Shown here in pieces: positions 12,345 through 28,602 of a DNA stretch of 64,000 bases. A program made the position numbers and the translations under genes. The stretch is from positions 99,027-163,026 of IMG/VR virus record IMGVR_UViG_3300046171_000225. One strand, 5' to 3'. The notes under the pieces are model-generated. The model had not been told where the DNA came from and did no database searches. It worked only from the letters and a program-made list of their open reading frames with translations. How positions within the stretch are numbered: the stretch's first letter is position 1; each line of letters opens with the position of its first letter. Source of the DNA: a virus.

Positions 12345-13182
12345 ATGGCACGCATGGCACGAGGCATCATGGGATTGCAGGACGGAGAGCGCGTATCGTT
12401 GGAAGGCTGGTCGTCAGCTTTCGATGATGCGAGAGAGGCAGGGCACATCGGGTATAGCTCTGGTGGCTACTCAGATGGTTCACCCCAAGACGGTAGACCA
12501 CTTGGTTCGCCAGACCTTCGAGGACGCGACGCGCTACAAAGTCACCAGCGCGGACTACGGTGTCACAGGCCTCAAGGGCAAGTACACCAACGCCTCATGG
12601 TACGGGCAGTGGACCTTGGACCCGAAGGACGACTCGGGCATGGGCATCTCCATCATCGCTCGTATGGGCAAGATGCCGTTGAGCGTTGGCGCAGGGAGCA
12701 GAGTTTTTCTTTGCACCAACGGCATGTTCAATGCCTCCGACGCCCACATGAAGTTTGGGCAGACTAACTCGCTCCAACGATACCTTGCCCCCATCCTCAC
12801 CGAGATGAGCCTGCAGGTTGGACCCATGCACGCTCGACGTGTCGCCATGCGTGAAGCCATGCGTGGTGTGCGAGTGACCGAGGCAGGGGCACAGCGTTGG
12901 TTGGGTGAGCTTGCATGGCAGCGACACATTGACGCCGATGGTCCTGTCATCCTCGATGCCCTTCCAGAGAACAGCATCAAGCGCATCGCGGAGGACGTTG
13001 TTCAGCCCCAGCACGACGCCTTCTTGCTGGAGGACGGCACCCGCAGCTTGGACACCTTGTACCAAGCCTCGAACTACTGGTGCCGCTTCACGCCCCATGG
13101 TCAGCGCATGGAAGCCCTACAGGCCATCGACGCGCACTTCCAACGGCTGGTCGAGGCTCCACCGGAGTACCTGTCAGCCTAG
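12345..13182 (+). CDS. DUF932-like protein with an apparent +1 frameshift near 12471
   Basis: GGAGG RBS at 12345; removing one base gives GGY-QMVHP, continuing to GAGSRVFLCTNGM, typical of DUF932/DUF945. Confidence 0.6.
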
Positions 13183-13214
13183 TCACCCTCCTGGCGAATC
13201 GTCCTGGCAAAATG

Positions 13215-13250
13215 AGCCCTCACCGTTTCGGCGGTGGGGGTTTTCTTTTT
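13215..13250 (+). terminator. Rho-independent terminator, copy 1
   Basis: AGCCCTCACCG-TTTCGG-CGGTGGGGG followed by TTTTCTTTTT. Confidence 0.85.
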
Positions 13251-13306
13251 GTTGCACCCCCAAGAAGAACTGACTAGCAGAGCGAAGGAAAAATCCTTTG
13301 GAGGTC

Positions 13307-13522
13307 ATCATGGAGAAGTTCTTGAAGTTCCTTACCACCTGCATGGCCCTCGGCATGTTGCCTTGGGTCGTGGCCAGCCTGCTCAACGTGCTCGTGTTCC
13401 CCCAGTCCAACTGGGCCTGCATGTTCAGCCCCGGAGCCACGACGGCCATCGTCGCCGTTCACTGCATGTGGTGTTGGTGGCTGTTCGGTGTGGTCCACCC
13501 GTACCTCACGACCGAGGACTAG
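13307..13522 (+). CDS. small two-TM membrane protein (GC-rich)
   Basis: GGAGG RBS; hydrophobic ORF flanked by twin terminators; start approximate. Confidence 0.55.
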   Translation: MMEKFLKFLTTCMALGMLPWVVASLLNVLVFPQSNWACMFSPGATTAIVAVHCMWCWWLFGVVHPYLTTED

Positions 13523-13560
13523 CCCCCGCTGCACGCTGGCCGTTGAGCTCAACTGGCCCA

Positions 13561-13595
13561 AGCCCTCACCAAGCCGTTGGTGGGGGTTTTCTTTT
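13561..13595 (+). terminator. Rho-independent terminator, copy 2
   Basis: AGCCCTCACCAA-GCCG-TTGGTGGGGG followed by TTTTCTTTT; near-identical to copy 1. Confidence 0.85.
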
Positions 13596-13856
13596 GCCTT
13601 CATCTCGCGGCCTGAAATGGGTCTAGGAGCTCGGGGTACCCCTCCCCCCCCTCTACCCCCTAGAGATAAGTCCCTAGGGCCTCGCCGCGCCCCACACCAC
13701 CTGATACATCCGCGACACCCACAGAAATTTTCCAGATTTAAGCCCTTTAAAAAAACCTACATAAAAGTTGACTTCCCAAATCGGGCATGCTAAAAATACC
13801 CCCAAATAAAATTTCCAGATTTAGGAATATCCCCCTCACTGTCTAAGGAGCTACAA

Positions 13857-14414
13857 ATGCCTAGTTGCGCAAGCTGTGGAACAGAGTTTGAACTAACCAA
13901 GCCTAACAAACGCTTTTGTTCAAAGAGATGTAAGGATAGGGAAAGAAAGAAAAGATATAGACAAACGGCTAGAGGGCGAGAAAAGCACAATCAGTATCGC
14001 GACAGGTATAGAAAATCAGAAAAGGGTCAAGAGAGGGAAAAAGAATACCGCAAGGGGTACGAGAAAAGGCCCCGAGTGAGATTAAGAAAAAATATAAGCA
14101 AAAGCATACGTGATGCACTTAAGGCAGCTAACAACGTCAAAAAATCAAGCATGTTTGAGAAGCTTCCCTACACGCCATTACAATTAAACGAACACCTAGA
14201 GAAGCAGTTTGATGAAAGAATGAGTTGGGACAACTATGGCACCTATTGGCATATAGATCATATAATACCACAAGCTGCGCTTCCTTATGATAGTATGGAA
14301 CACCCTAACTTCGCTAAGTGTTGGGCGCTTGATAATCTCCAGCCCTTGAGTGCTGTTGAGAATATTAAAAAGGGTAGCCTTCATGAGGGCCAGAGGCATT
14401 ATTTCAGTACCTAG
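13857..14414 (+). CDS. HNH-type endonuclease with N-terminal Zn finger
   Basis: CASC...FCSKRC; MSWDNYGTYWHIDHIIP...CWALDNLQPLSAVENIKKG. Confidence 0.8.
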   Translation: MPSCASCGTEFELTKPNKRFCSKRCKDRERKKRYRQTARGREKHNQYRDRYRKSEKGQEREKEYRKGYEKRPRVRLRKNISKSIRDALKAANNVKKSSMFEKLPYTPLQLNEHLEKQFDERMSWDNYGTYWHIDHIIPQAALPYDSMEHPNFAKCWALDNLQPLSAVENIKKGSLHEGQRHYFST

Positions 14415-14473
14415 GCCTTAATTAAATCTTCTGTGGAACTTGACACCTAACCCCCTATAGGTTAAGCTACCCC

Positions 14474-15100
14474 ATGGAAGACCCCAAAGGAGAAAAAGTT
14501 TGCCCTAGCTGTGGTACTCTTAAGCCCCTAACGGAATATGGGGTACGCAAAAGTAAGAAAAGCGGTAGGAGAAGCTGGTGCAAGGCATGTATGGTTACCC
14601 ATACCCGTATCAGAAGAGAAAAACTAAAAGAAGAGTTCGCTCTAAACCCACCTCAGTACACAGGGGCAATGATTACTTGCCGTAGGTGTGGGGAAGAGAA
14701 GGTTGATTCAGATTACCACTTTGACTACTCTAAGAAATCGGGTATCGGAACCATATGTAAGCCCTGTCATACAGGCGCTAGGGCTACCTCTGTTAAGCGA
14801 CAGCCTAGTGGCATATATACTATAAAAAATAAAAAGAATGGACGCATCTATATTGGACAAGCCATACACTTGGCCCGTAGGTGGGCAGACCACAGGCGTG
14901 GCCTACAAAAAGGCAATCATAATAATAAGGTCCTACAAGCCGACTATGACCTTCATGGTCTAGAGGGCTTTCACTACGAAGTTATAGAAAACATGGGACG
15001 GGGACAAAAGCGCTCTGCTCTACTTCTAAGAGAAATGGAAAAAATTCTGGAACACCATAGTCAAGGAGCAGAACTTTATAACCTTCTTGTTCTCGATTAG
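14474..15100 (+). CDS. GIY-YIG homing endonuclease with Zn-finger repeats
   Basis: SGIYTIKNKKNGRIYIGQA...RWADH...YN; two CxxC pairs N-terminally; TTGACA-N17-TAAGCT upstream. Confidence 0.88.
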   Translation: MEDPKGEKVCPSCGTLKPLTEYGVRKSKKSGRRSWCKACMVTHTRIRREKLKEEFALNPPQYTGAMITCRRCGEEKVDSDYHFDYSKKSGIGTICKPCHTGARATSVKRQPSGIYTIKNKKNGRIYIGQAIHLARRWADHRRGLQKGNHNNKVLQADYDLHGLEGFHYEVIENMGRGQKRSALLLREMEKILEHHSQGAELYNLLVLD

Positions 15101-15109
15101 ACTACTTAT
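15101..15109 (+). promoter_or_regulatory. candidate late promoter ACTA(T/C/A)TTA (representative copy)
   Basis: Intergenic copies at 392, 15101, 17949, 19364, 22887, 28651, 30375, 33479, 35063, 36061 and 60454, each shortly upstream of a start codon. Confidence 0.65.
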
Positions 15110-15129: not shown

Positions 15130-15837
15130 GTGAAAAAATTATTTGAGTCATGGAGAGGCTACTTAACCGAGATGCCAAGAGAGTTTGGCCCTATATTTGA
15201 TCAGCCATATGGTGGAGCTGGTGGAGATGAGGTTGAGGAGTTTAAGAACTTAAGCCGAGAAGAGATTGAAAGAGAGAAAAAATTTGGCAACCTCTACTGC
15301 CAAGAAGATGTTTGTTGGATAGGCAAAAAGGGAAGAATGATCAAGGTTGATCTTGACTATGTCTATCCAATACAGGGAAATATCTTTTATCAAGACAAGC
15401 TTGATTATTTTAAAAATCTGTTTAGGACACAAGATGAAGTTTATCTGCATGCTCCTTACGGGATTTTATCTATTGTTGACCTAGATAGTATTAAGGAAAG
15501 CATAGAATACGAAATGTATAGCGGTGATCATAAAGCCCTAACCACTGGTGATGAAGAGCTTGATGTGTATATTCTCGATAAAGAAAAATATGTAGAGGAT
15601 AATGACCTTGAAGAAGAAGAGGTTCAACAACTCGAGCAAGATCTTCAATACGCTATAGCAAACAACGAGGGAGATTTAGGCGACACAATCTTTCAATCAA
15701 GGGACGGAAACCATAGAATATTTGGGGCTAGAGCTGCGGGTAAAAAATATATTTGGGCGATAATGTATCAAAATCAATACGATGATGTAATGGGTGAAAA
15801 GCCTTGGATGGCTGGATACAAGAAGTATCTAAAATGA
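15130..15837 (+). CDS. leader-bearing protein with a ParB/Srx-like domain
   Basis: N-terminal KKLFESWRGYLTE leader; RDGNHRIFGARAAG resembles the ParB DGxHR motif. Confidence 0.65.
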   Translation: MKKLFESWRGYLTEMPREFGPIFDQPYGGAGGDEVEEFKNLSREEIEREKKFGNLYCQEDVCWIGKKGRMIKVDLDYVYPIQGNIFYQDKLDYFKNLFRTQDEVYLHAPYGILSIVDLDSIKESIEYEMYSGDHKALTTGDEELDVYILDKEKYVEDNDLEEEEVQQLEQDLQYAIANNEGDLGDTIFQSRDGNHRIFGARAAGKKYIWAIMYQNQYDDVMGEKPWMAGYKKYLK

Positions 15838-15862
15838 TTTCTTTACGGGAGACGGAAAGCAA

Positions 15863-16714
15863 ATGAAAAAATTATTTGAGTCATGGAGGAGGTATGTTGG
15901 AGAAGGTATTCTCCAAGAGGTTCCTCTAGAGGGCTTTGGTAAGTATGGCGATGAGGGAGACGAAAAGTTTAAGTCTATTGCATATGATCAAGTTGATGAT
16001 CCCGACTATGTTAAGCGCTCTGTTGCTCTATTTGAAAAAGTTCCCGATCCCTTTTATATTATTGTTGTTGACAATGTGGGACAAGCTGGTCGTGGCCTAC
16101 CCCCTAAGCTTCCCGAAATAAAAAATTGGGTCGAACAAAAAATGTGCCCGGAGTCCGGCGAGGGGCCGGATGATTGCTGGAGACGGGATGCTAAGTTTCT
16201 TGTTGTTGGGCACCATTCCCTGAGTGATGACTATGAAGGCCCTGAATGGCAACTTGTCCATGATGTTATTGGTCACTCAGCTCAAGACAGCGTTTACCGT
16301 AACTTAGAGAAAGTTCCAGTTACCTCTGGTGGATATGATAACTGGTGGGCTACTAAGTTTCTCTCAAAGTACTATAAAGAAAAAGATGTTGCTCATCGCG
16401 AACTCCAAGGAATTATGATGGAAGAGTTCCCTAAAGCTATTCATCAGGCCCTCCCTGAGCATCTAAGGCTGGGAGAGACAGAAGACGACCTTCTGCCAGA
16501 TATTCTTGGTGCCATCTTCGTTGGAGATTTTGGACCGGAAGACGCAGACAAGGTAGATCTAGAATACCTCAGGGATCTTAATCCTGATATCAGTCCTCTG
16601 GGCCTCCGAGAGCAGGTTAAGACTGCTATTACCTTATATAAAAAATACCTTCTCACATGGTGGGAAGATCAATTAAACCCTAAGGGCGAAATAAGCGTCC
16701 TTATTCCCTTTTAG
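15863..16714 (+). CDS. leader-bearing protein, possible zincin-like domain
   Basis: MKKLFESWRRY leader; LVHDVIGH motif. Confidence 0.6.
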   Translation: MKKLFESWRRYVGEGILQEVPLEGFGKYGDEGDEKFKSIAYDQVDDPDYVKRSVALFEKVPDPFYIIVVDNVGQAGRGLPPKLPEIKNWVEQKMCPESGEGPDDCWRRDAKFLVVGHHSLSDDYEGPEWQLVHDVIGHSAQDSVYRNLEKVPVTSGGYDNWWATKFLSKYYKEKDVAHRELQGIMMEEFPKAIHQALPEHLRLGETEDDLLPDILGAIFVGDFGPEDADKVDLEYLRDLNPDISPLGLREQVKTAITLYKKYLLTWWEDQLNPKGEISVLIPF

Positions 16715-16723
16715 GAGATTGTC

Positions 16724-17062
16724 ATGAGAATCAGGATTATAAAAGCCAAAAGACTTCTAGAAGGAGACGAAGATCCTAGAAGAGGTATGAAAGAAAGAAT
16801 GGAAAAAGCTGAAGAAGCTATTGAGATGTTCTTCGACCAGATCTTTGCACAAGCTCAAAGCGTAGAGGAGCATGATGCTCTTGTAGGACTTTTCTTTGAT
16901 CGCATGGCTATCTACTCTAGTCCACCAGAAGACGGTCTGTCTGATGAAGAGTTCGTAGATTTACTTTTCAAGAACACCAGAAAGATGAAAGAGCCTGCAG
17001 AAATGGATGAGCCGGAGCCTATGAGACCCCAGGGTGCTCAGGACAGAAGGGAAGAGGACTAA
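16724..17062 (+). CDS. hypothetical protein with MRIRII...LLE leader
   Basis: AGGAG RBS; second leader class. Confidence 0.6.
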   Translation: MRIRIIKAKRLLEGDEDPRRGMKERMEKAEEAIEMFFDQIFAQAQSVEEHDALVGLFFDRMAIYSSPPEDGLSDEEFVDLLFKNTRKMKEPAEMDEPEPMRPQGAQDRREED

Positions 17063-17748
17063 TGCAAAAATTATTTGAAGCCTGGAATAAGTTCCTTACA
17101 GAAGACGAAAAGGCTTACTTCCCTTGGCTCGCTGCTCTCCAAAATCTAGAAGATCCAGATCGTGAAGCTGTGGAAGAGGCTTTCCCTGAGTGGGAGCACT
17201 TGGGTGCTGGCTCTTACCGAGCTGTTATGTCTCCAAAGGGCGAAGAGGATTATATTATTAAGGTTATCCACGATAAGAAAGATGCTTACCAAAATGAGAT
17301 GGAGTACGAAGTATCAAAGGATTTTCCTACTCTTTTCCCTAAAGCATTCGCTCATCATCCTAAGTTTAACTGGATCGTCCTTGAGAAAGTCAAGGTTATT
17401 GAGAGTTTGAACATGGAGTTCCGTAGAGCGTTTGAAGCCGCTTTCCCAAAAGTGACAAAATACGCGTCGGACGCTGGGGTAAAGAACTTCTTCCTTGCTT
17501 TCAAGTCCGTACTCTATGCTGCAGCTCTTGGTGCTGACCCGGATGCAGAAGATGATATCTCACCAGCACAGATGGAAAACATTAAAAAGATAAGAGATTT
17601 CGGACTTGAGCAATCTGAGCCTTTCCGTGAACTTGTCAAGGCAATTGCAACATACAAGATCGATGTCTCTGATATTTCAGTTGGAAACATTGGAATCAAT
17701 GATGAAGGTAAATTTATTATTATCGACTCTTCAATTTGGGAGGCGTGA
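17062..17748 (+). CDS. leader-bearing protein kinase-like protein
   Basis: MQKLFEAWNKFLTE leader; LGAGSYRAV glycine loop, YIIK lysine, NEME, DISVGNIG catalytic loop, IIID. Confidence 0.75.
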   Translation: MQKLFEAWNKFLTEDEKAYFPWLAALQNLEDPDREAVEEAFPEWEHLGAGSYRAVMSPKGEEDYIIKVIHDKKDAYQNEMEYEVSKDFPTLFPKAFAHHPKFNWIVLEKVKVIESLNMEFRRAFEAAFPKVTKYASDAGVKNFFLAFKSVLYAAALGADPDAEDDISPAQMENIKKIRDFGLEQSEPFRELVKAIATYKIDVSDISVGNIGINDEGKFIIIDSSIWEA

Positions 17749-17942
17749 TGCAACTCTCTAAGAGGTTTAAGAAAGTTATTGCTTGGAGATTTCTTTCTTT
17801 TTTTGTTACCATACTCATCAATTACCTTGTTTTTGGGTCTTGGAATAAATCTTTTTGGTTTACGGTCGTGCTCATGACCATTTTTACAATTTTACATTAT
17901 TATTTTGAGATGATGTGGGAAAAAATCGAAGATAGGATCTAG
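17748..17942 (+). CDS. DUF2061-like small membrane protein
   Basis: KVIAWRFLS...HYYFEMMWEKI pattern. Confidence 0.55.
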   Translation: MQLSKRFKKVIAWRFLSFFVTILINYLVFGSWNKSFWFTVVLMTIFTILHYYFEMMWEKIEDRI

Positions 17943-17961
17943 TTTTGTACTATTTATACAT

Positions 17962-18300
17962 ATGAATCTGTACCTGTACAAAGCAAAATTAGATCGTGTG
18001 ATTGATGGAGACACTGTCGATGCTATGATCGACCTTGGATTCAACACTTGGGTACATAAAAGAATACGCTTGCTTGGCATAGATGCTCCCGAGACGCGCA
18101 CCAGGGACCTTGAAGAGAAGGCAGCAGGGCTACAGACCAAGGAACGCCTCACGAGCCTTCTAGAGGCCTCAGGAGGCGAGTTTGTCGTTGAATCTCATGG
18201 TGTTGGCAAGTACGGTCGCTGCCTTGGTACTCTATGGATTGGAGATCAAAATATAAATAATCTTCTTCTTTCGGAAGGGCTCGCGGAGGTCTATGAATGA
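17962..18300 (+). CDS. thermonuclease (SNase-like)
   Basis: RVIDGDTVD...RIRLLGIDAPETRT...GKYGRCLG. Confidence 0.9.
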   Translation: MNLYLYKAKLDRVIDGDTVDAMIDLGFNTWVHKRIRLLGIDAPETRTRDLEEKAAGLQTKERLTSLLEASGGEFVVESHGVGKYGRCLGTLWIGDQNINNLLLSEGLAEVYE

Positions 18301-19340
18301 AAGGTTGGCTTAGAAGCTTATTAATGGTGCTAGTCATTACAGGCTGTGTTGAATGGGACATAGGCGATCCCGCAGATACTACCCCACCTGTTCCGAATGC
18401 TCCGGATATTATAGCCGACCCTGTAGAAGATGTTATCCAGCAACCCGAAAGGAACAAGGTTGATGTTTTATGGGTCATAGACAACTCTGGTTCCATGGAG
18501 CAAGAGCAACAAGCCCTTATTCTAAGCTTTGAATCGTTTATACAATACTTTATTGATTCGGACTTGGATTGGCACATTGGTGTGACCTCAACCGACATGT
18601 CGCCCGGACCCGACCCCGGAATCGGCGGAAAACTTCGGCGATCTGGTGGTCGCGTTTATATAGATGGGGATACACCCAACCCTATCGGTGTATTTTCCGA
18701 CATGGCCGCGATGGGTACAACCGGGTCTGGTACGGAAGAAGGTATTGCGGCCACTTGGTCCGCACTAACCAAACACCGCTCCTGCGAGCACAACTTCGGA
18801 TTTTATCGCGAAGACGCGAAACTGGTCGTGATTGTTATTTCCGATGAAAACGACCATAGCGAGAGTCCCAAATGGTCTGAATGGGTACCCGGAATGTTGT
18901 CCCTAAAGTCAAAGCCCGATGAGATTGCCTTTCATGCCATTGTTTGTACCTCTCCCGGCCCCATAAACGGTATAGGATGCGGTCCTCCTTATTTCGGTGA
19001 TGAATCTGTTGGCTATTTATATATGGACTCTGCTGCGGCCCTAAACGGCTCTGTCTGGGACATCCGACAAAAAAATTGGGATCCCTTTATGTCGGAGTTG
19101 GGTTTGTTGTCGATAGCCCGTCGTCAAGAGTTTTTCCTAAGTTCTGTTCCGGTTGTCGAATCCATTGTTGTGTGGGTCGAAGATGGAGACTGGGAATACA
19201 CCTTTGAGTTGGATGTGGACTTTGGTTATGATGAAATCCGTAACTCTATTTACTTTTATAGTATCCTGCCCCCGGAAGGATCACAGGTTCATATTCAATA
19301 CGTTCCACGGTCGGAAGGACTTGCAGAGAAATATGAGTGA
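18297..19340 (+). CDS. vWA-domain lipoprotein
   Basis: Lipobox ITG-C; MIDAS DVLWVIDNSGSM; VIVISDEND. Confidence 0.8.
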   Translation: MKGWLRSLLMVLVITGCVEWDIGDPADTTPPVPNAPDIIADPVEDVIQQPERNKVDVLWVIDNSGSMEQEQQALILSFESFIQYFIDSDLDWHIGVTSTDMSPGPDPGIGGKLRRSGGRVYIDGDTPNPIGVFSDMAAMGTTGSGTEEGIAATWSALTKHRSCEHNFGFYREDAKLVVIVISDENDHSESPKWSEWVPGMLSLKSKPDEIAFHAIVCTSPGPINGIGCGPPYFGDESVGYLYMDSAAALNGSVWDIRQKNWDPFMSELGLLSIARRQEFFLSSVPVVESIVVWVEDGDWEYTFELDVDFGYDEIRNSIYFYSILPPEGSQVHIQYVPRSEGLAEKYE

Positions 19341-19392
19341 AACTCCTTTCGACTCATGAAACAACTACTTATACTATATCGAGGTTTATAAA

Positions 19393-20991
19393 ATGAAAGA
19401 CATACTGCAGAACTGGAATTCCTACACAGGAAAGGCCAAACTTACAGAATCGCAGAAAAACAAACTTCATGTCAAACACCAAGCACTAAGCAACAACGGC
19501 TCATTAGACTTGATATTTGAGTCTGGTTTTGACAATATGTTCGAATCAGTAGCTAAATGGCAACAATTTTATGAAGATGGCTGCCAAATTCTTGGTAAGA
19601 AGGCAGTATCAGAGGTTTTAAACTACAGGATATGTTTAGAGTCTTTAAAAGAAGCAAGAAAAAAAGACAAAAAACATACACCAATGAACAAGCCGTCTCA
19701 ACAAATTGCACGAATGTATGGCTTGCCGGACATACAGCAGAGCCAAACAGAACCAGGAGCACTAGAGTCTACAGTCGAGTATTTCGAGCGTGTCTTAAAG
19801 ATGGATCTCTCCCCTGAAGAAAGGGAAGGCCTTGAAGACCTTATGCTTGCGATAGATAATGAAGAAGAGGAAAAGAGTCAAGAGGAAGAAAGTGAAGAGG
19901 AAGACTCTTTCGATCCCTTTTCTAACTTAAAAGCTAGAGCTATCGATAAACAAGAAGTCCCTGGCTTCTATGACAGTCCAACAGAGGTTTGTTATTTACA
20001 ACTCTCTGATGAAAATTCAAAGCTTGAGAGTTTGGATATTGTTTCCATGTCTTTACCTGTTGGATATACATGTAAGTATGCTGGGTCTTGTAAAACTTTT
20101 GTAGAGCCATTAGGTAGAGATGAGAAAGGGGACTTCACAACAAAGCTGAGAACAACACCTAAAACGATAACTCACTGTTTCATGGGCGCGATAGAACAGC
20201 GCTCACCAGAATATAGAGCTAAAGTTTGGTATAATGCTTACTTATTAAAGGTGCCATCTGCCGTAAGGTATATGAACAAGGGACTTTTAGACGCTGTCGC
20301 GGCAGATCCAGCTGACATTTCCATGGAAGAGTTGATTATAAGAAGTATAAAAAATTATATGGAACAAAAAGCTAAAAAGATAAAACTGTTCAGAATACAT
20401 GCTGGTGGAGATTTCTTTTCCCAAGAGTATTTTGACGCTTGGTTAGGTGCTGTAAGACATTTTAAAAACATTATTTTCTATGCTTACACGACTTCTCTCC
20501 CTTACTGGTCCGCCCGTGTAAATGATATTCCGCCTAACCTTAGACTGGTCGCATCTGCCGAAACGGCATCTAAGCGAGCTTATAGAGAATCGATCAAAAG
20601 TGCTATTGATTCATTTAGAAAAGTTTACATTAAAGACACTCCTCGGTCAGCTGCTGAAGCCCGATTGCAAATTGACGTCAATGACTTTGAAGCTGTACTA
20701 GGGGAGGGAGATTTTGCATTGTTGCTTCACGGTGCTAGACAAGAAGCAGGAAAAACAGTTGAAATATCCTCTTCCTTTAAAAATCCGGATGGCACAAGGG
20801 ACAGTATGAAAGTTAATGCGTCTACTTTAGCAAAATTTAATTCCAAGTTAATTAAACTTAAGGCTAAACAGTTCCAGACTGACCCAGAAATAGCAGAACA
20901 ACAAATGAGAGATATCCTGATTGCAACAGCCAAATGGCACGAAGAAAGAATGGCTCCTCCAGCCCCTAAGGATGAAGAAGATGACAAATAA
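19393..20991 (+). CDS. leader-bearing protein with a C-terminal GP88-family domain
   Basis: MKDILQNWNSY leader; SMSLPVGYTCKYAGSC...C...FRIHAGGDFFSQEYFDAW...FYAYTTS...NLRLVAS parallels ORF 4110. Confidence 0.75.
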   Translation: MKDILQNWNSYTGKAKLTESQKNKLHVKHQALSNNGSLDLIFESGFDNMFESVAKWQQFYEDGCQILGKKAVSEVLNYRICLESLKEARKKDKKHTPMNKPSQQIARMYGLPDIQQSQTEPGALESTVEYFERVLKMDLSPEEREGLEDLMLAIDNEEEEKSQEEESEEEDSFDPFSNLKARAIDKQEVPGFYDSPTEVCYLQLSDENSKLESLDIVSMSLPVGYTCKYAGSCKTFVEPLGRDEKGDFTTKLRTTPKTITHCFMGAIEQRSPEYRAKVWYNAYLLKVPSAVRYMNKGLLDAVAADPADISMEELIIRSIKNYMEQKAKKIKLFRIHAGGDFFSQEYFDAWLGAVRHFKNIIFYAYTTSLPYWSARVNDIPPNLRLVASAETASKRAYRESIKSAIDSFRKVYIKDTPRSAAEARLQIDVNDFEAVLGEGDFALLLHGARQEAGKTVEISSSFKNPDGTRDSMKVNASTLAKFNSKLIKLKAKQFQTDPEIAEQQMRDILIATAKWHEERMAPPAPKDEEDDK

Positions 20992-22846
20992 GTTCCACAA
21001 TGCATGGCGGGGCTTTTTGAATGAACAGGAGGACAAGCCACCAGAAGAACTGCCTGACGGCGAGCTCACCAAAGATGAACTTGCCATATGGCAGAATGTT
21101 CTTGCTGATGTGTCGAAGTCTTTCTCTCTAAAAGAATCTTTTCTAGCAGAATACCTCATAGAACAGAGTCCTCCACAAAGGATCCTGGATCCTCCATTCC
21201 CAGAAGAAGAAGATTACGATCCACGTAACCCCCCTTTTGATCCACGGAGAACTCCCCCTCCGACAGGCATGCCGTATGACCCTCTGAGTGACCCTGAAGA
21301 GATTCACAAAAGTATGCAGACTACCAGAGCTCAGCAGAAAAAGGGCGAAGAAAAAGGCTTTCCAAAGGCTGTAGATAAAGACGATCCACAGGAAATGATC
21401 CCAGGTATTGGGTCTGTGATGCCGATTAAATTAAGCTCAAAATACTCAAAAGACAGTAGTTTTTGCCAAGTATTTCCTGGTATTAACAAATGGAGCCAGG
21501 AGAGTGCTGACAATTTCGGTGAGACCGTCCTATTTGTTTACGCCACAATGCAGACAACTTGGCCGAGAGTGGCAGTGTTCTTCCGTTTTTTGGTAGACTT
21601 TGTCAAGGAAAATCAGGCTAGTCCATCAAACTTTGAGCAGTTTGTCTATCGTCCCCCTAGAAACAATACTCAAACGGACTATAATGAATTTAAATATTAC
21701 CTTGGCAAGGATCTTTATGCAAAGTATTCTAGAAGGCTGAGACAGGCTGTCAAAGCAAGAGATGATGCTTCAAGCAGAGAATACCTAATTAATAAAGTGA
21801 AAGAACTACGTTCTCTCAAAGGCAGAGATGGAAGATCTCGTTATGAGACAAATAAAAGAATCAGAGCCAGAGTAGATCGTATGGAGCGTGTACTACGTGA
21901 TTCTCAAAGAATCCCTGAAATAGAATACGAAATCGAAGAGAAAGTCAATGAGCAGAGAAACCAGTTCAGAGACCAAGGTCTTCCAGACTACGAGACAGCC
22001 AGAGATAACTATGAAAACGCTTTAAGTAACCACAACGGCTACAGAGGAACCGAGCTAACTGCCCTGTTTAAAAAAATTCATGGAGTTTCCGAACTAACTC
22101 CTGAGCAGGAAGAATATGTTAGCACAGCCCGAGGGGTGATTGCTTACATGGCTGCTACTCCCGGAGCTAGATACTATGTACCTACTTGGAACAGTAGAGC
22201 AAGTATTTTTTCTAGTGTCTCCGAGCATTTGAAAAAGTACAATAAAGACAAAAACCCCAATGACCTATTAGATCTATTGGTTGATGTCGTAAAGATCCCA
22301 GGGATCGGCGTTGTGAAGGGTGGCTTATTAGTCCAGCTTCTAACTGGACAACTGGGGTGTATTGATAATGTCTGGCAAAAAATTCTTTATGCTCAGGACG
22401 AAGTCATTGCAGAAAGAGTAAAAAGAATAGTCCGCTCTAAGAAACCAGATGCAGAGAAGGCACTCAGAGATTATGCAAGTGCTTATATCACTCTTCTAGA
22501 AACACTGGAGAAAAGTTACTCTGTAGACTCTAAGGGCATATTTGAAGTATGGTCACAAATTACCACCCTTGCCAATAAAGGTGGTCCCAATAAGGGATAC
22601 AATATGAATCTAGAGTTTCTAAAAAAATCTACGGGTAAGCGAAGTAAAAAACTTAGCCCTGTTCAGATTGCTGTTAGAGGCGAATCAAATAGTGACACGT
22701 TCAAATTCTACACCATGGGTGGTGGGCCTAATGAACCACGCACTGCCAAAGAGCAAGACCCTAGAACCCTAGATTACCCACAGGCCGTAAAAGAAAGCAA
22801 AGTTCTAGAGACTTTCAAGAAGTGGAAGAAGTCTCAGTGGGACTAA
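20981..22846 (+). CDS. leader-bearing protein with a helix-hairpin-helix (DNA glycosylase-fold) domain
   Basis: Start MTNKFHNAWRGFLNE; LFVYATMQ and KIPGIGVVKGGLLVQLLTGQLGCID motifs. Confidence 0.6.
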   Translation: MTNKFHNAWRGFLNEQEDKPPEELPDGELTKDELAIWQNVLADVSKSFSLKESFLAEYLIEQSPPQRILDPPFPEEEDYDPRNPPFDPRRTPPPTGMPYDPLSDPEEIHKSMQTTRAQQKKGEEKGFPKAVDKDDPQEMIPGIGSVMPIKLSSKYSKDSSFCQVFPGINKWSQESADNFGETVLFVYATMQTTWPRVAVFFRFLVDFVKENQASPSNFEQFVYRPPRNNTQTDYNEFKYYLGKDLYAKYSRRLRQAVKARDDASSREYLINKVKELRSLKGRDGRSRYETNKRIRARVDRMERVLRDSQRIPEIEYEIEEKVNEQRNQFRDQGLPDYETARDNYENALSNHNGYRGTELTALFKKIHGVSELTPEQEEYVSTARGVIAYMAATPGARYYVPTWNSRASIFSSVSEHLKKYNKDKNPNDLLDLLVDVVKIPGIGVVKGGLLVQLLTGQLGCIDNVWQKILYAQDEVIAERVKRIVRSKKPDAEKALRDYASAYITLLETLEKSYSVDSKGIFEVWSQITTLANKGGPNKGYNMNLEFLKKSTGKRSKKLSPVQIAVRGESNSDTFKFYTMGGGPNEPRTAKEQDPRTLDYPQAVKESKVLETFKKWKKSQWD

Positions 22847-22921
22847 ATAAAATTTAAGTAGATTTGTTCCTCTAATCTCAAAAGAAACTAATTAGTTTAG
22901 TTTGTGTGGAGGTGTATCTAA

Positions 22922-23212
22922 ATGTCAGGAAGTACAATCAGCATTAGCAATGAGAGAATGTGGAAAATGTTTACTCTGGTTACTGGTGTACTTATCGTGC
23001 CTTTAGTTGGCTGGGTTTGGAATACAAACGTAGCTGTAGCGCAGATACAAAATGATCTTCAAGATGCTGAAGGGACTATTGTTGTTCTTGGGCAAAAAGT
23101 TGAAGAATCTGATGTTAATGCAAAAGCTATCATCTCCATGAAGAAAGATATAGAATACATGAAAGAGACTCTTGACAGAGTAGAAAGAATTGTTGTCGAT
23201 AAGCAGAGGTAG
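22922..23212 (+). CDS. single-TM coiled-coil protein
   Basis: One TM helix followed by a coiled coil; GGAGG RBS; late motif upstream. Confidence 0.55.
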   Translation: MSGSTISISNERMWKMFTLVTGVLIVPLVGWVWNTNVAVAQIQNDLQDAEGTIVVLGQKVEESDVNAKAIISMKKDIEYMKETLDRVERIVVDKQR

Positions 23213-23243
23213 AGAGTCATCTAGCGAAGGAGCACAAAATACC

Positions 23244-24266
23244 ATGAAAATCAAGATAATTCCAGCTGGAGCCCTCGAAGAAAAGAAGAAAAAGAAGGCT
23301 AAAAAGAAAGACGACCGCTGCACTCGTATAGCCAAAAGAAAATATAAGGTGTGGCCCTCTGCTTACGCCTCAGGAGCCGTGGTACAGTGTAGGCGAGGTA
23401 AGATATGGAAAGGACTCAAAGAGGGCCAGGAAGAGCCTCTAGAGGCAGCTGAGGAGGCTATCCTAGACACGTTGAAGGCAGAAGGTGGTGCCGCTGGTCT
23501 AGAACCCCTAGAGAAGGCTGTGGCAGACTTGAAATTGCCTGAGGATTTTAACATTGTAGAGTTTTTGAAGGATCTCGACACTGTTGGGCAGCATGAAGAT
23601 GGGGACTACTACTCTAAGCAGGGTCTAGAAGAGGGAGAGATCATTGATTTCCCAGCTAAGGAGCGCTCCGACGAGAACGTCCAGCTAGTAAACCAGTTAT
23701 TTAAAGATTTCAACCAGCTACAAGACGTAGATAATAAAGATGAAATCGGCATTGTTCTTACACTAAATTTGAGACAGCTTGAATCTGATCAGATGAGAGA
23801 AGTTGACCCTGACCTCAACCAAGTAGCTTTTGAGAAGATGTATGGCAGAGTGGTCGATGTTGTTGAGAAAGCGATACAAGATAACGTCGTAGAACTAAGA
23901 GAAGCCAAAAAAAAAAGAAAGAAGCGAAAAAAAGCAGGCACTGAGTCCTCAAAAGAGAAATCCCTAAGAGACTGGTTTGGTCGTAAGGGAGCAAAGGGCA
24001 AGAAAGGCGGCTGGGTTGATTGTAACGCTCCAGACGGCAAAGGTGGCTACAAAGCTTGTGGTCGTGAGAAAGGCGAGAAGCGTAAAAAGTATCCTGCCTG
24101 CAGACCAACCCCTGCTGCTTGCAAAGAGCGCGGAAAAGGCAAGACTTGGGGCAAAAAAGCTAAGAAAAAGAAGAAAATGAAGGAATCTGCTGAAGAATAT
24201 GTCTACGGAGTTAAAAATCCGGGTCGTATGGGCAACATTTATAAAATAAAGGTGGTTAAGTCATGA
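23244..24266 (+). CDS. modular basic/acidic putative internal virion protein
   Basis: MKIKII...LEE leader; KYKVWPSAYASG and LRDWFG...GGWVDC...KYPACRP modules separated by L-x-E sites. Confidence 0.65.
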   Translation: MKIKIIPAGALEEKKKKKAKKKDDRCTRIAKRKYKVWPSAYASGAVVQCRRGKIWKGLKEGQEEPLEAAEEAILDTLKAEGGAAGLEPLEKAVADLKLPEDFNIVEFLKDLDTVGQHEDGDYYSKQGLEEGEIIDFPAKERSDENVQLVNQLFKDFNQLQDVDNKDEIGIVLTLNLRQLESDQMREVDPDLNQVAFEKMYGRVVDVVEKAIQDNVVELREAKKKRKKRKKAGTESSKEKSLRDWFGRKGAKGKKGGWVDCNAPDGKGGYKACGREKGEKRKKYPACRPTPAACKERGKGKTWGKKAKKKKKMKESAEEYVYGVKNPGRMGNIYKIKVVKS

Positions 24267-24670
24267 TTATCCGTATTGTAAAAAAGGTTTTGGAGATGGC
24301 ATGCCCCCGTGCTACCCAAGATGTGGACCTAAACACAAAAAACAGAAACAGTACCAGAGAAAACCACATGTATGGGCCTCTAAATGTGAAAGAGCCCGGT
24401 GATTATTGGGAAAAACTGGCCAAAAAGTGGGATACAACTGAAAAAGCTGCAAAAAAGAGCACTTGTGGTGTCTGTGTAGCCTTCGACATCTCTCCACGTA
24501 TGGATGATTGTATGCCCGGTTCTGTTTCTGACGACAGTGGGCGTCTTGGTTACTGCTGGATGCATCATTTTAAGTGTCACTCTGCTCGATCCTGCGACAC
24601 ATGGGCTACTGGTGGCCCTATAACTAAAGATAAGGTATCTTATGAATGGCAGAGAAAAGGCGAAAAATGA
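24263..24670 (+). CDS. Cys-rich conserved phage protein
   Basis: MIIRIVKKVLE leader; CPRATQD...CGVCVAFD...GYCWMHHFKCHSARSCDTW. Confidence 0.65.
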   Translation: MIIRIVKKVLEMACPRATQDVDLNTKNRNSTRENHMYGPLNVKEPGDYWEKLAKKWDTTEKAAKKSTCGVCVAFDISPRMDDCMPGSVSDDSGRLGYCWMHHFKCHSARSCDTWATGGPITKDKVSYEWQRKGEK

Positions 24671-26385
24671 AAAAGATACTTGAGTCGTGGAGACTATACG
24701 AGAATCAAGCCCTAAAAGACGGGATTGAAAGAGAGTTTAGAATTATCCTCATTAACTGGGTTAGCAAGTATAGTCCGGGCTCATCTGAAGGTAAAAAACT
24801 TGAGGCATGGTTTAATACTAATAAAAAGTCGCAGTTTAATAAATATTCTTATGACCAATTATATGGAGCCATGGTCCAGTATATGGATCAAATTGCAGTT
24901 GTTCCTCTAATGGTGGGGGAAGAGCTTTTTCCTAGGCGTGTGGCGTATAGTAAAAACAGTCAGCAATTAGCTGCTTATGGTCCCCCACCGCTAAACCCTC
25001 CATACGATAAACAAAAAACTGGTATGTTTATAGTTAATGCCCAAAAATGGTCACAAAGTGATGAAGGGAGAAAGAAAGATATTATTAACCATGAAGCTGG
25101 CCATTGGCTAGATTGGTTTAAAGGGTTTATTGGTAGCAATACAGATACAAAATTTGCTTCCCAAAGTGGCACTGACCTGTCCTTACTTAAAACCATATTT
25201 TTGGACTCTCCCGTGGATGGGCACGGGTTAAATCAAGAACAGCTACAATATTTTGGTAGCAAAAAGGAACAACGTGCTTACTTGAAACAATATGTCGGCT
25301 CTAGTTTATCCAAAGGCGATATATTTAATATTTGTACTGCTCAGCGAGAAATAGTTGCCTCCGGTGGCTTTAAAAGCCTCACACCAGAGAAATATAAGGA
25401 TATATCATCCCGAGTCAATTTCAGACCCGAACTGATTCTTTATTTTAATTGTGGCAGAGCCAGTCAAGATCAAATTATTGATGCTGTTAAGCAGCTGGTC
25501 AAAGTAGATCAAGGGCAACGCACCATGGTTGCAGAGCGAGAAGCGTCAGTTGACCCTAAAATGAAGAAATATCTTGAGGACCATCCTTACATGGAGCCTG
25601 ACGGCATGCAGGAAGGTGAAACTCAAGATATCCCAGAGACGCAGCGTAAGATTTTATTAAGAATCAAAAAACAATTACAAAAATCTGCTGAAAAACATGC
25701 TCGACAAGCGAGACAGGCTACAGATATTGCAAAAGCATCACAAAAATCATCTGATTTGCATCGCGATCAAGTTGATCAGCTTGATGCAATGACCGAAGAC
25801 AACTTAGAAGAAAAAAGAGGAGCAACTCCTGCCTACTGTAGGTCCACTGCATGTAAAGATATGGGGTTCACACAGAAAGCCAGTTGTAAATCCCAAGGTA
25901 TTAAGGATTGTTACAGAGGCAAAAAGAAAAATGAGCAAGTTGAGCTTCAGGAGCGTTGCCAAAAGGGATATAAGACACACCCAACAAGAAAAACAAAGAT
26001 TATGTTTGGTAAACGGTATAGAAATTGTGTAAAAGCAGAGGAAGGCCGCATGTTAGAGGCCGACCCTAAGAAAGGAACGGGCAAAAAGCCTAAAGGTTCT
26101 GGTAGAAGACTATATACTGATGAAAATCCTAAAGATACAGTTTCTGTTGAGTTCTCTTCAGTAGCTGCTATCAAGCGTACACTTGCAAAAGCATCTTTCA
26201 AGGCCAAGTCTCACAAAAGACAGTCTCAGATTATTAACCTTATACACCAGAGAGTCAGGGCTGCATATAAAAATGCAAAGGATCCAAAAGTAAAAGCAAG
26301 GCTTAAAAGAGCTTATGAATATGCAGAAGAAAGAAAAGAAGCTTCAAAGAAAAAGACAGCAAGACTGAGGAAGGCTAAAAAATGA
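24667..26385 (+). CDS. leader-bearing modular protein: zincin domain plus basic modules
   Basis: MKKILESWRLY leader; NHEAGHWLD (HExxH) with a downstream EQRAY; LEE, LQE and MLE junctions; DPKKGTGKKPKGSGRRLYTDENP module. Confidence 0.65.
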   Translation: MKKILESWRLYENQALKDGIEREFRIILINWVSKYSPGSSEGKKLEAWFNTNKKSQFNKYSYDQLYGAMVQYMDQIAVVPLMVGEELFPRRVAYSKNSQQLAAYGPPPLNPPYDKQKTGMFIVNAQKWSQSDEGRKKDIINHEAGHWLDWFKGFIGSNTDTKFASQSGTDLSLLKTIFLDSPVDGHGLNQEQLQYFGSKKEQRAYLKQYVGSSLSKGDIFNICTAQREIVASGGFKSLTPEKYKDISSRVNFRPELILYFNCGRASQDQIIDAVKQLVKVDQGQRTMVAEREASVDPKMKKYLEDHPYMEPDGMQEGETQDIPETQRKILLRIKKQLQKSAEKHARQARQATDIAKASQKSSDLHRDQVDQLDAMTEDNLEEKRGATPAYCRSTACKDMGFTQKASCKSQGIKDCYRGKKKNEQVELQERCQKGYKTHPTRKTKIMFGKRYRNCVKAEEGRMLEADPKKGTGKKPKGSGRRLYTDENPKDTVSVEFSSVAAIKRTLAKASFKAKSHKRQSQIINLIHQRVRAAYKNAKDPKVKARLKRAYEYAEERKEASKKKTARLRKAKK

Positions 26386-26978
26386 TTCTAACAGAAGAAA
26401 AACTAAAATCAATTATTCTTGATGAGCTACGAAAGACGGTTTTTAAAGAGGGCTTACGTCATCACTACGTCAATCGTGTCCCTGTTCATGAATCTATCTA
26501 TCGTATTGGTTCTCCTTGTTACTTCAATGTAATCAGTCAGGCAAGAGACTTTTATAAGAAGGGCCTCTATGAAGCTGTTAATGAAGAGGAGAGGGACATT
26601 CTAGAGAACACTAACCTTGGTGAATGGGCGATGTTTGAAGGAGAAGAAATCCCTTTGGATTTCCCGATGTATGCGGAGACTCTCGAAGAAGCCAAGAAGA
26701 AAAAGAAGAAAGATCCCCCGATTGGCAAGCCTTCCAGAAACACAGGCTCTGGCAAGAAGTATAAAGTCTTTGTTCGCAACCCTAAGACTGGTAAGATCAA
26801 GAAGATTACTTACGGTGATTCCAAAGGTGGCCTCAAGGGTGGCTGGAACAGCCCTGAGGCTCGTAAGTCATTCGCTGCACGTCATAAGTGTGCCGAGAAG
26901 AAAGATCGCACTAAGGCCGGTTACTGGGCCTGCAGAGCACATAAAGATTTTGGACCAGGAATCGGAAGGTTCTGGTGA
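26382..26978 (+). CDS. conserved basic viral protein
   Basis: LKSIILDEL leader; LEEAKKK junction; KKYKVFV...ARKSFAARHKC...AGYWAC module. Confidence 0.65.
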   Translation: MILTEEKLKSIILDELRKTVFKEGLRHHYVNRVPVHESIYRIGSPCYFNVISQARDFYKKGLYEAVNEEERDILENTNLGEWAMFEGEEIPLDFPMYAETLEEAKKKKKKDPPIGKPSRNTGSGKKYKVFVRNPKTGKIKKITYGDSKGGLKGGWNSPEARKSFAARHKCAEKKDRTKAGYWACRAHKDFGPGIGRFW

Positions 26979-27250
26979 TGGATTTTCCCTTCTCTGAAAA
27001 GAAGGTCGGAAATAAACTATTCCTCCGAGAGTTTAGAGAAGATGTAGACTCTGAGGAATTGATTTGGCATCAAGACAAAGAAGACAGAAAGGTCAAGATT
27101 ATTGAAGCTAACGGATGGAAGTTACAAATGGATAATGAACTTCCTGTCTTGTTAGAAAACGGCTCTACTTACTATATACCTGCCTACCATTTTCATCGAG
27201 TAATAAAGGGTAACGGCAGACTACTTATAGAAGTGGAGAAAAGCCCATGA
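26975..27250 (+). CDS. small cupin-like phage protein
   Basis: ELIWHQDKEDR...WKLQMDNELP...FHRVIKG. Confidence 0.6.
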   Translation: MMDFPFSEKKVGNKLFLREFREDVDSEELIWHQDKEDRKVKIIEANGWKLQMDNELPVLLENGSTYYIPAYHFHRVIKGNGRLLIEVEKSP

Positions 27251-27822
27251 AATCACTTCTAGAAAATTGGAACAACTTCCTTACTGAACAAAAATCTTTT
27301 ACAGATAAGGAAAAGATAGCACTTGTTATATTTGGAGAAGCTCGTGGAGAGTCGAACGCTGGAAAGCGAGCTGTTTTGCATGTTGCTATGAATAGGGCTA
27401 AACACGAGGGCAAGTCTGTACTAGAGGTTATGCAAGAGCCGGGTCAATTTTCAATTTTAAATGATAATACTTTTGCTGATATATACAAAGAAGCACAATC
27501 GGGCGATATACCAAAAAAGAAATATGCAGAGAGTCTTGAAATTGTAAGTAATCCTGGAAAAGATATTACAGGAGGATCGACTCATTACCTAACCACAGAA
27601 CTCTACTATGGCAAAAGAAAATGGTGGGCTGACTATGACAAGAATATATGCTGGGTACCCATGATAGAAATAGGAAAGCATGTATTTGGAATTGAGACGG
27701 GCACATACCCGCCACCAGATGGACTTAAATGTGTATATAGCATCGAAAAAGGCAAAAGAAAGTACAATATGTCCACGGTCCCAGCAAGGCACGATTTCGG
27801 TCAGCATCCCAAGCTACCCTAA
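27247..27822 (+). CDS. leader-bearing SleB/Hydrolase_2 cell wall hydrolase
   Basis: MKSLLENWNNFLTE leader; IALVIFGEARGES...AV..V.MNR...QFS...GSTHY...IGKHVF. Confidence 0.85.
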   Translation: MKSLLENWNNFLTEQKSFTDKEKIALVIFGEARGESNAGKRAVLHVAMNRAKHEGKSVLEVMQEPGQFSILNDNTFADIYKEAQSGDIPKKKYAESLEIVSNPGKDITGGSTHYLTTELYYGKRKWWADYDKNICWVPMIEIGKHVFGIETGTYPPPDGLKCVYSIEKGKRKYNMSTVPARHDFGQHPKLP

Positions 27823-27900
27823 CCGTACCGGTGCAACAATAAATAAATGCTTTTTATGAATTATGGGTCTATGTATAGTCCAATGTGGAGGGTCTATACA

Positions 27901-28068
27901 ATGACTTTTATATCAGGGCAAAAAGGTAATGTTGCAGTAGAGTACGGACTTATCGTTTGTTTGCTACTTGCTATTGTTGCTTCTTTATACATAGATGTTG
28001 GCGCAAAAATGAACACCTCTTTGTATACTTTAACAGATGCTATGGGAATTACTAATACTCAAGGCTAA
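27901..28068 (+). CDS. Flp/Tad (type IVb) pilin-like protein
   Basis: GGAGG RBS; QKG|NVAVEYGLIV prepilin cleavage site with E+5/Y+6, followed by a hydrophobic helix. Confidence 0.65.
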   Translation: MTFISGQKGNVAVEYGLIVCLLLAIVASLYIDVGAKMNTSLYTLTDAMGITNTQG

Positions 28069-28095
28069 TTACTACATATTTTAGGAGTTATTAGC

Positions 28096-28602
28096 ATGAG
28101 TGGTTTTAGTTCATTTAAGAATAGTAAACTTTTGTTTGAAAACTGGAGAAGTCATGTCACAGAAATCTCTGACCCAGTAGCAGACAAGTTAGCGTCTATG
28201 AGTGACGCAGAAAAAGAAGAAATGGAAGGCATACTAGATTCTGACGACGACAACGAGGGTTCAATGACCCTTCAGGAAGACGGACACACTGATGTTGCCT
28301 CTGCGATGCGCAAACTTAAGGTTGCCTGTGAGAACGCTCAGGACCTTCTAGAGGTGCTTTCTAGAATGCCACACGAAGGAGATCTTCCCTCTTGGTGGAT
28401 GAGTAAAGCTACGCTCGCTTCAAACTACCTTAGCAAGATGAGAGATTATCTTGTTTACCCTTCAGAAAAGCAGCTTAAACTACCTCTAGAAGAGAAAGAC
28501 GATCCTGTCTCTAAAGAAATCAGTAAGCTGGTCGATAAGGGAACTCCTCACAAGCAAGCTGTTGCAATCGCTCTTGATATGGAAGAGAAAGGTAAGATTT
28601 AA
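28096..28602 (+). CDS. leader-bearing modular head protein
   Basis: KLLFENWRSHVTE leader; LQE-DGHTDV, LPSWWMSK and LEE...KQAVAIAL modules. Confidence 0.65.
   Translation: MSGFSSFKNSKLLFENWRSHVTEISDPVADKLASMSDAEKEEMEGILDSDDDNEGSMTLQEDGHTDVASAMRKLKVACENAQDLLEVLSRMPHEGDLPSWWMSKATLASNYLSKMRDYLVYPSEKQLKLPLEEKDDPVSKEISKLVDKGTPHKQAVAIALDMEEKGKI

Follow-up and report, generated by a model that had tools for sequence, protein, structure and literature searches.

A Trp-containing N-terminal leader common to unrelated proteins of an uncultured marine T4-like phage: a candidate prohead-targeting propeptide

Mullaney and Black are said to have described, in 1996, a capsid-targeting sequence (CTS) on the internal proteins of phage T4 that is removed by gp21. 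The CTS comprises the first 10 residues of IPIII, in which residues 4 and 7 serve targeting and residues 8 and 10 serve processing; gp21 itself carries LIE-9, the CTS is all that the varied internal proteins of the T-even phages have in common, and this sequence has already been proposed as a general loading route for varied proteins in T4-like phages (PMC9026906, PMC3012670, PMC5694885). Cleavage by T4 gp21 occurs after L/I-x-E (PMC9026906). Long N-terminal propeptides are found on the ejection or inner-body proteins of phiKZ, 201phi2-1 and SPN3US (PMC5694885, PMC9026906). Here we describe a 14-residue leader containing Trp, designated the “W-tag”, in the last 64 kb (64,000 nucleotides, hereafter the window) of a 163,026-bp IMG/VR virus record from an uncultured marine T4-like phage. 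The W-tag begins eight genes of the window (L1 to L8, between positions 15130 and 28602), and it is probably a prohead-targeting propeptide of the T4 CTS kind, cut off by the head protease.

All eight leaders claimed in an initial annotation of this DNA were found in place on the + strand. The consensus is M-K-[KL]-L-F-E-N-W-[RN]-x-[YF]-[LIV]-x-E. A 14-column profile was built from the leaders and scanned against the whole genome, a check that the annotation had called for; nine matches scored 19.7 to 26.6 bits and the next best scored 3.7 bits. A broader profile from 51 sequences again returned exactly nine. The ninth W-tag is at genome position 71914, upstream of the window, on a 541-amino-acid (aa) soluble repeat protein. 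The tag is strictly N-terminal, with no internal copy in the genome: it starts within 25 residues of the gene start in all nine cases, a zone that makes up 9.3% of coding residues (chance ∼5e-10). Seven tags are at the initiator codon itself, and the other two are shifted by 3 residues (20972, MKKMTNKFHNAW) and by 9 residues (28096, MSGFSSFKNSKLLFENW). When all N-termini were compared with one another without bias, the W-tag group emerged as the sole sizeable N-terminal family in the genome, and none of 10,440 internal control pairs reached the threshold used. An [LV]-x-E site is present inside tag residues 10 to 19 in all nine.

The bodies behind the tags, described as unrelated in the initial annotation, indeed fall into nine families with no mutual relation (BLASTP, 1e-5). 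When codons for the same residue were paired between two tags (n = 161), 53% of the pairs differed in codon, so selection acts on the peptide and not on the DNA. The same figure argues against an element of the DNA itself, be it a linker for recombination, an RNA structure or a signal for translation, and this reading was rejected. DNA identity between tags was seen only in the adjacent genes at 15130 (L1) and 15863 (L2), which have 25 identical nucleotides in common. A 316-aa protein at genome position 91284, starting MFDDWAWKSYVNVMTE, is probably a degenerate tenth copy, because its body is homologous to one that bears a canonical tag in a relative. A literature search for the motif string returned only noise.

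To survey relatives, a strict back-translated tag pattern (47 bits) was used, which matched 26 stretches on 25 IMG/VR contigs. The same pattern gave no match in 185,579 prokaryote genomes (596 Gb), where ∼0.008 matches are expected; since chance predicts so few, the viral matches are considered real, and no cellular genome or prophage among the 185,579 encodes the strict tag. Together, this genome and the sequences of its relatives contain 87 tags scoring at least 15 bits, followed by a gap to 7.7 bits. These represent 62 unique proteins and 51 BLASTP body families, which in the relatives also include bodies that are Nudix-like, P-loop NTPase-like and nucleotidyltransferase-like by sequence motifs. 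The position is N-terminal (first 45 residues of the open frame, mostly at the initiator Met) in 86 of the 87. The lone internal tag is on the minus strand of contig L035 (4410 to 6602, record G014), in a 730-aa open reading frame (ORF) in which two tagged units are joined without an intervening stop, in the order W-tag, HEMGH-motif body, internal LKPIFENWRGFLEE and nucleotidyltransferase-like body. In the alignment of the tags (A1), W8 is invariant, conservation is at least 90% at M1, K2, L4, E6 and E14, and position 12 is L, I, V or M. For distant homologue pairs the tag is conserved above the body (0.79 versus 0.28, and 0.50 versus 0.35).

Tagged genes are arranged in runs in the relatives: about ten are adjacent in G014, seven in contig L027 and six or seven in L019/L020. 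The genes found most often beside them encode terminase subunits, small membrane proteins and a 647-aa protein family, each present in at most 8 of 26 records, and clustering of the 893 neighbouring ORFs from these records revealed no enzyme family linked to the tagged genes. Similarity between tags was 0.615 within genomes and 0.586 between them (p ∼0.04), a marginal effect in a sample picked by the pattern itself, and genome-specific co-adaptation of the tags was rejected on these grounds. Searches by tblastn with the 22-aa leader and with the whole of L2 gave no match in 50,697 phage records. A conserved element of ∼45 nucleotides (...GTGCCTGGATTGATTGCGATACTAAGCATGAATGGATTAGCAAC) is located directly 5′ of the ATG in several tagged genes of relatives (L016:∼195–241, L024:∼8060–8106, L026:∼10733–10779, L031:∼572–618, L009 and L037:∼5390–5436), and is not found in the genome studied here.

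The strongest new evidence comes from natural tag swaps, in which homologous bodies have different N-termini. A full HMMER search with L2 gave 45 cluster representatives. A W-tag was recognized by profile in 20 of the 45, and about ten others begin with a second type of tag (class II, MRITESxLRQIIRE..LNE, or MKITKSQLKQIIKEEL type). Four begin with a third type (class III, MxIKLHNKxKLKE or MIIIKIKRKNTKRLLE type), and some have minimal N-termini such as MIREMLVNE. Whatever is upstream, the junction with the body is retained, with Glu at P1 in 28 of 33 sequences, L, I or V at P3 in 29 of 33, and A, V, T, G or S at P1′ followed by Pro. In five L2 homologues, E14 of the W-tag itself occupies the junction (...KYLNE/GPLDF, where the slash marks the junction). 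In a second swap, a 135-aa protein of this genome (24263 to 24670, + strand), with the class III-like N-terminus MIIRIVKKVLE/MACP..., corresponds to the W-tagged MKLLFENWREFINE/AKDLICP... of contig L025 (57% identity). A third pairs MARRKNTKRIDPRYFLNE/TTYR with MKKLFENWNKYLNE/TAHR (65% identity). As judged from these alignments, the boundary of the module falls exactly where a gp21-type protease would be predicted to cut, because the swaps keep the junction of [LIV]-x-E with a small residue and Pro.

The feature common to the three tag classes is the terminal [LIV]-x-E site and not their physicochemical character. As a helix, the W-tag is strongly amphipathic (hydrophobic moment 0.71, within the top 0.5% of shuffles) and has a net charge of +2 and Trp and Phe on the apolar face, although the net charge is −1 in some tags of this genome, such as that of L7. 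Class III is not helically amphipathic (moment 0.29) and is beta-like if anything. The class II sequence MKITKSQLKQIIKEEL has more than 35 copies in related contigs. Nearly all of these begin at the initiator Met, and they are interspersed with W-tag genes. The form MKITK[ST]QLKQIIKEEL is found on diverse small proteins of contigs L022, L026, L030, L031, L035 to L038 and others (for example L037:6347–6400 and L026:3738–3791). Class II copies number 11 in G014 and 7 in G010, and none was found in the present genome or in G004. A regular-expression scan for class III gave matches in the present genome only; one of these, at genome position 87902, was set aside because it is more likely strand one of a Nudix fold than a tag. 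Class II-like N-termini (MKKSQLRQIIKEALD, MKKSQLREIIRKELQ and MKKSELVKLIKEELN) also begin three proteins of the cultured Flavobacterium phage vB_FspM_immuto_3-5A (MW353176.1, hereafter immuto), at record positions 113141 (L047), 102839 (L050) and 102253 (L052). This phage is a possible bench system for the tag idea.

A protease of the appropriate family is encoded in the same genome. The head module is of the T4 type, with the order TerL, portal, three unassigned ORFs, S77 protease, a small ORF and other unassigned ORFs together with bS21, a 434-aa acidic scaffold-like protein, and Gp23 capsid protein. The prohead protease (genome 34387 to 35016) belongs to Peptidase_S77 (PF03420, 3.7e-34) and the capsid protein to the Gp23 family (PF07068, 2.5e-73). 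The protease aligns to T4 gp21 (5JBL, 3e-20) and retains GELDHP, SRGLGS and FDVV, the catalytic His, Ser and Asp motifs. The initial annotation had asked for the protease and scaffold genes to be located; the former, with its triad intact, is clear, and the latter is not, as the 434-aa protein beside the capsid gene matches no family. Neither do the small ORFs between portal and protease. In T4 the scaffolding core bound by the CTS consists of gp22, gp67 and gp68. The 434-aa protein is acidic, coiled and rich in L-x-E, and is conserved in G004 and G014. An S77 protease is present in G004, G010 and G014 and, among tag-bearing records, in both complete ones (210 kb and 185 kb) and in one that is 73% complete; the tag-bearing records without it are fragments of 11% to 42%.

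Candidate L-x-E sites are also found in the head proteins. In the clade, the protease N-terminus has LTE-8 and, at residues ∼22 to 26, D[YFL]LTE or AVLTE (four genomes), with variable flanks. The capsid propeptide has the conserved sites GLLEG and LLENQAKE[LI]L[RK]E/[VA]STMAAGD, again with variable flanks. In G004 (complete, 210 kb), a 116-aa tagged gene starting MKEILNSWKKYLNE is directly upstream of the protease gene within the head operon, and the ORF after the protease in G010 has a degenerate MDTWKEFLTE. By capsid protein, the closest cultured phages are Flavobacterium phage immuto (46%), Rhodothermus phage RM378 (42%) and Microcystis phage Mel-JY01 (36%); all are distant, and the phage belongs to a far-T4 lineage.

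Two further features were noted in this module, both outside the window. An ORF of ∼140 aa starting MKKSELKKILKPLVKECIKESILEE lies right after the protease gene (genome ∼35014 to 35440, + strand) and was missed by longest-ORF gene calling owing to an antisense ORF. G010 and G014 conserve it in the corresponding place, where the ORF of G004 has a different start. It resembles class II only loosely, since the class II profile returned no significant score for MKKSELKKILKPLVKECIKESILEE. A bS21 gene (PF01165, 7e-14; genome 36921 to 37190, L003:921–1187) is located between the protease and the scaffold-like gene, and likewise in G004, G010 and G014.

A promoter-like motif of late type, CTACTTAT, is located at 15102 to 15109 on the + strand, 28 nucleotides before L1. 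Motifs of the same class are at 17950, 19365 (before L4), 27221 (before L7) and 28065 (before L8), and the remaining tagged genes follow in the same runs. In this genome CTA[TAC]TTA[TC] lies 11 to 62 nucleotides 5′ of many gene starts, including those of the head-tail adaptor, sheath, tube and baseplate-wedge genes, and 39 of the 45 copies of the narrower CTA[TA]TTA[TC] are on the + strand.

We propose the following sequence of events. Tagged genes would be expressed late, with the structural genes. The amphipathic helix, through the face formed by L4, F5, W8, Y/F11 and L12, would dock the protein on the scaffolding core of the assembling prohead. The S77 protease of the gp21 family would then cut after [LIV]12-x-E14, or at a second L-x-E a few residues on, which would free the mature protein inside the head and allow the tag peptide to escape. 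The cargo would remain with the DNA and enter the host at infection. In relatives, tags of the MKITKSQLKQIIKEEL type and of the MxIKLHNKxKLKE type would do the same job, being swappable with the W-tag on one body. Core docking, cleavage, retention in the head and ejection are steps that we infer. Each sequence-level prediction of capsid targeting that could be tested appears to hold. Of the capsid-targeting idea put forward in the initial annotation, the N-terminal tag, the unrelated bodies and the end fitting the gp21 rule stand, and the S77 head module and the swap boundary agree with it; several enzyme labels are weak or unsupported, and the likeness to the T4 CTS is one of pattern only.

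Several points weigh against capsid targeting. The W-tag has no alignable similarity to MKTYQEFIAE, only a pattern of M1-K2-x-hydrophobic-x-E6 and a terminal L/I-x-E, and [LIV]-x-E carries little information as a motif. The conserved junction of Glu with a small residue and Pro might be the start of the body fold rather than a cleavage site. An amphipathic, cationic tag with a moment of 0.71 could bind membrane, and the SleB-type hydrolase among the cargo could be an ordinary endolysin. The tagged cargo is mostly large and acidic (isoelectric point (pI) 4.6 to 5.5 in five of nine), whereas T4 internal proteins are small and basic. The ninth tagged gene is in an operon with a histidine kinase, apart from the cluster. 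The promoter-like motif would mark late genes to judge from which genes have it, and it is directly upstream in only 2 of 53 tagged genes of relatives, so the argument for late expression rests on the genome studied here. The W-tag profile, with which all nine tags of this genome were recovered as a positive control, gave no match in five cultured T4-like phages (immuto, HTVC008M, Mel-JY01, RM378 and P-HM2).

Other explanations make use of some of the same observations. The W-tag might be an uncleaved docking tag for a common hub outside the head interior, for example on the outer surface of the virion, at the neck or baseplate, or on a scaffold that is no part of the virion. A conserved amphipathic helix, with a consensus nearly equal across genomes (0.615 within, 0.586 between), would fit one partner of any kind, and the tagged genes of relatives are often near terminase and structural genes. 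We nevertheless consider such a hub unlikely: the bodies are enzyme-like, not binding- or fibre-like, three structurally different tags swap on one body with the terminal [LIV]-x-E as their common part, and a tagged gene sits beside the prohead protease in the head operon of G004. Less likely again is that the leader is an N-terminal membrane-targeting helix that gathers phage proteins at the inner membrane, at a site of assembly or lysis, with no role in packaging. Helices of that kind tolerate change, yet W8 never varies here and conservation reaches at least 90% at K2, L4, E6 and E14; class III, with its low moment, replaces the W-tag on the same body, and a net charge of −1, as in L7, is not what this explanation predicts. 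The amphipathicity, the charge of +2 and the Trp/Phe apolar face would nonetheless suit a membrane surface, as would the small membrane proteins among the commonest neighbours and the wall hydrolase among the tagged proteins.

Similarly improbable is that the leader has no connection with the capsid and is recognized in the infected cell by a chaperone, a regulated protease or an enzyme that modifies it, in the manner of a degron or of the leader of a ribosomally synthesized and post-translationally modified peptide. The GP88 domain of tagged L4, of unknown function, would be compatible with it, but no enzyme family co-occurs with tagged genes among the 893 ORFs of 26 records, and the prohead protease is the sole protease tied to the tag by both motif and gene position. 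Very improbable, in our estimation, is a functionless relic of recombination or duplication, in which a cassette junction was copied between genes. The 25 nucleotides common to L1 and L2 are what such copying would leave, but 53% of same-residue codon pairs differ, the peptide consensus is kept over ∼25 contigs and 51 body families, and the tag is conserved above the body in distant homologues.

The tagged genes of the cluster are all on the + strand. L1 (15130 to 15837) encodes 235 aa from a GTG start, with the leader (V)KKLFESWRGYLTE at 15130 to 15171. Its body is acidic and has a DGNHR motif; there is no Pfam match, and the ParB-like label of the initial annotation is a lead only, from clustering with ParB_N at 0.93. 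L2 (15863 to 16714) encodes 283 aa, and its leader, MKKLFESWRRYVGE at 15863 to 15904, is followed by GILQE/VPL. A deep homologue search showed W129, H133, D134, G137, H138, D209 and D213 to be invariant in its body. In an AlphaFold2 model of L2 (predicted local distance difference test score 85, predicted template modelling score 0.84), the leader forms a detached helix (residues 2 to 15), the LQE/VPL site is in a low-confidence coil (16 to 21) and the ordered body begins at residue 22. Foldseek gave no PDB match for this model (best E 0.27) and a full-library aligner gave a best Z of 4.7; since the model is confident and has no structural relative by either method, the earlier “zincin-like” label is unsupported for L2.

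L3 (17062 to 17748) encodes 228 aa with the leader MQKLFEAWNKFLTE and a kinase-like body. It matches phrog_4301 at 3e-8, and its kinase label is weak, resting on kinase PHROGs at E values of 0.006 to 0.01. L4 (19393 to 20991) encodes 532 aa; the divergent leader MKDILQNWNSYTGK is followed by AKLTE, and the GP88 domain at residues 216 to 450 is solid (PF17338, 5.9e-23). L5 (20972 to 22846) encodes 624 aa, with the leader TNKFHNAWRGFLNE at 20984 to 21025, three residues past the start MKKM; its HhH label (HhH/Ogg-like) is a weak lead. L6 (24667 to 26385) encodes 572 aa, with the leader MKKILESWRLYENQ (L-Y-E at residues 10 to 12) and a HEAGH motif. Its C-terminal domain is very basic (pI 9.7) and stands alone behind a W-leader in contig L025. 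L7 (27247 to 27822) encodes 191 aa, with the leader MKSLLENWNNFLTE and a SleB-type cell-wall hydrolase domain at residues 34 to 147, an assignment borne out by Hydrolase_2 (PF07486, 9.4e-11). Orthologues of L7 retain the leader, and the distant homologue P0006 begins directly at the hydrolase domain. L8 (28096 to 28602) encodes an acidic 168-aa protein with the leader SKLLFENWRSHVTE at 28123 to 28164, nine residues past the start. No 19-residue stretch with a Kyte-Doolittle average of at least 1.6 was found in eight of the nine tagged proteins, and three were found in L5. A Sec/Tat-type h-region or membrane anchor was not found in the tag, whose mean hydrophobicity is −0.29.

Class III-like N-termini are present on other genes of the cluster in addition to the 135-aa protein described above. 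Between L2 and L3, a 112-aa protein (16724 to 17062, + strand) starts MRIRIIKAKRLLE/G, and a Lys-rich protein of ∼340 aa (23244 to 24266, + strand) starts MKIKIIPAGALEE; the latter is the weakest assignment. An untagged staphylococcal-nuclease homologue (window 17962 to 18300; PF00565, 1.4e-13) lies amid the tagged genes with its own promoter-like motif at 17950. A second GP88-like protein, also untagged, is encoded at window positions 4110 to 4838 and is 25% identical over 142 aa to tagged L4. Between L7 and L8, a 73-aa hydrophobic ORF (window 27847 to 28068) has a weak match to Flp/Fap pilin (PF04964, E 7e-4, under the curated cut-off). A GC-rich stretch (0.50 to 0.57 versus ∼0.41 elsewhere) is just upstream of two ORFs that resemble HNH and GIY-YIG homing endonucleases by sequence motifs only; these features cover window positions 10001 to 14000 and 13857 to 15100.

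Phage proteins that travel in the head and enter the host are known for a handful of model phages, and their identification usually needs virion proteomics. If the tag works as proposed, sequence alone would suffice to list the proteins that an uncultured marine clade injects, and dozens of enzyme families with likely roles in host take-over or counter-defence would already be on that list. A broader claim, which we advance tentatively, is that this abundant marine far-T4 clade carries a sequence-predictable library of head-packaged, injected enzymes, with more than 50 body families and at least three propeptide classes that can replace one another and all end at a head-protease site, and with cargo gained by tag grafting. 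The library would include kinase-like, ParB-like, Nudix-like, nucleotidyltransferase-like, wall-hydrolase and GP88 bodies. Phages would then possess something comparable to the effector sets of bacterial secretion systems, and it could be read straight from metagenomes. The swaps also mark out the smallest portable unit, 14 residues plus L-x-E, which could load foreign proteins into heads of phages other than those of E. coli, as the T4 CTS does. The three exchangeable classes raise the question of whether they correspond to different partners, layers or copy numbers in the prohead core.

The T4 CTS and the W-tag are alike in being short N-terminal tags (10 residues in T4, 14 here) on otherwise unrelated proteins, with an M-K start, aromatic or hydrophobic targeting positions, Glu 6 and an L/I-x-E end. 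Both phages have a gp21-family S77 protease and a Gp23-type capsid, and LTE-8 of the clade's protease compares with LIE-9 of T4 gp21. Adjacent genes with DNA-identical tag copies occur in both, namely L1 and L2 here (25 nucleotides) and ipII and ipIII in T4, at whose starts we read the sequence MKTYQEFIAE that the initial annotation had cited, in identical DNA. The systems differ in that the W-tag is four residues (one helical turn) longer and has an invariant Trp. Four CTS cargos are known in T4 (IPI, IPII, IPIII and Alt), compared with 9 or 10 per genome here and at least 51 body families across the clade, and cargo that is small and basic there is mostly large, acidic and enzyme-like here. 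At least three tag classes are interchangeable in the present clade, for which packaging and cleavage are predicted from sequences. By sequence the W-tag thus does not belong to the T4 CTS, but it may work in the same way.

The giant phages are also similar, in that a gp21-related protease cuts after Glu and the propeptides are thought to target the prohead (PMC5694885, PMC9026906). Paralogues with identical N-termini are known there (SPN3US gp53 and gp54), and multiple cleavage sites are possible (PMC5694885, PMC9026906); YVGE followed by LQE in L2 would be a parallel. Those propeptides are of another lineage and have 80 to 275 residues with S/A/G-x-E or A-x-E sites (PMC5694885, PMC9026906), in contrast to the 14 to 19 residues and the T4-like [LIV]-x-E found here. 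The principle is known in T4 and was anticipated for its relatives; what is new is the tag family, its scale, the enzyme-like cargo, and interchangeable tag classes with a defined swap boundary.

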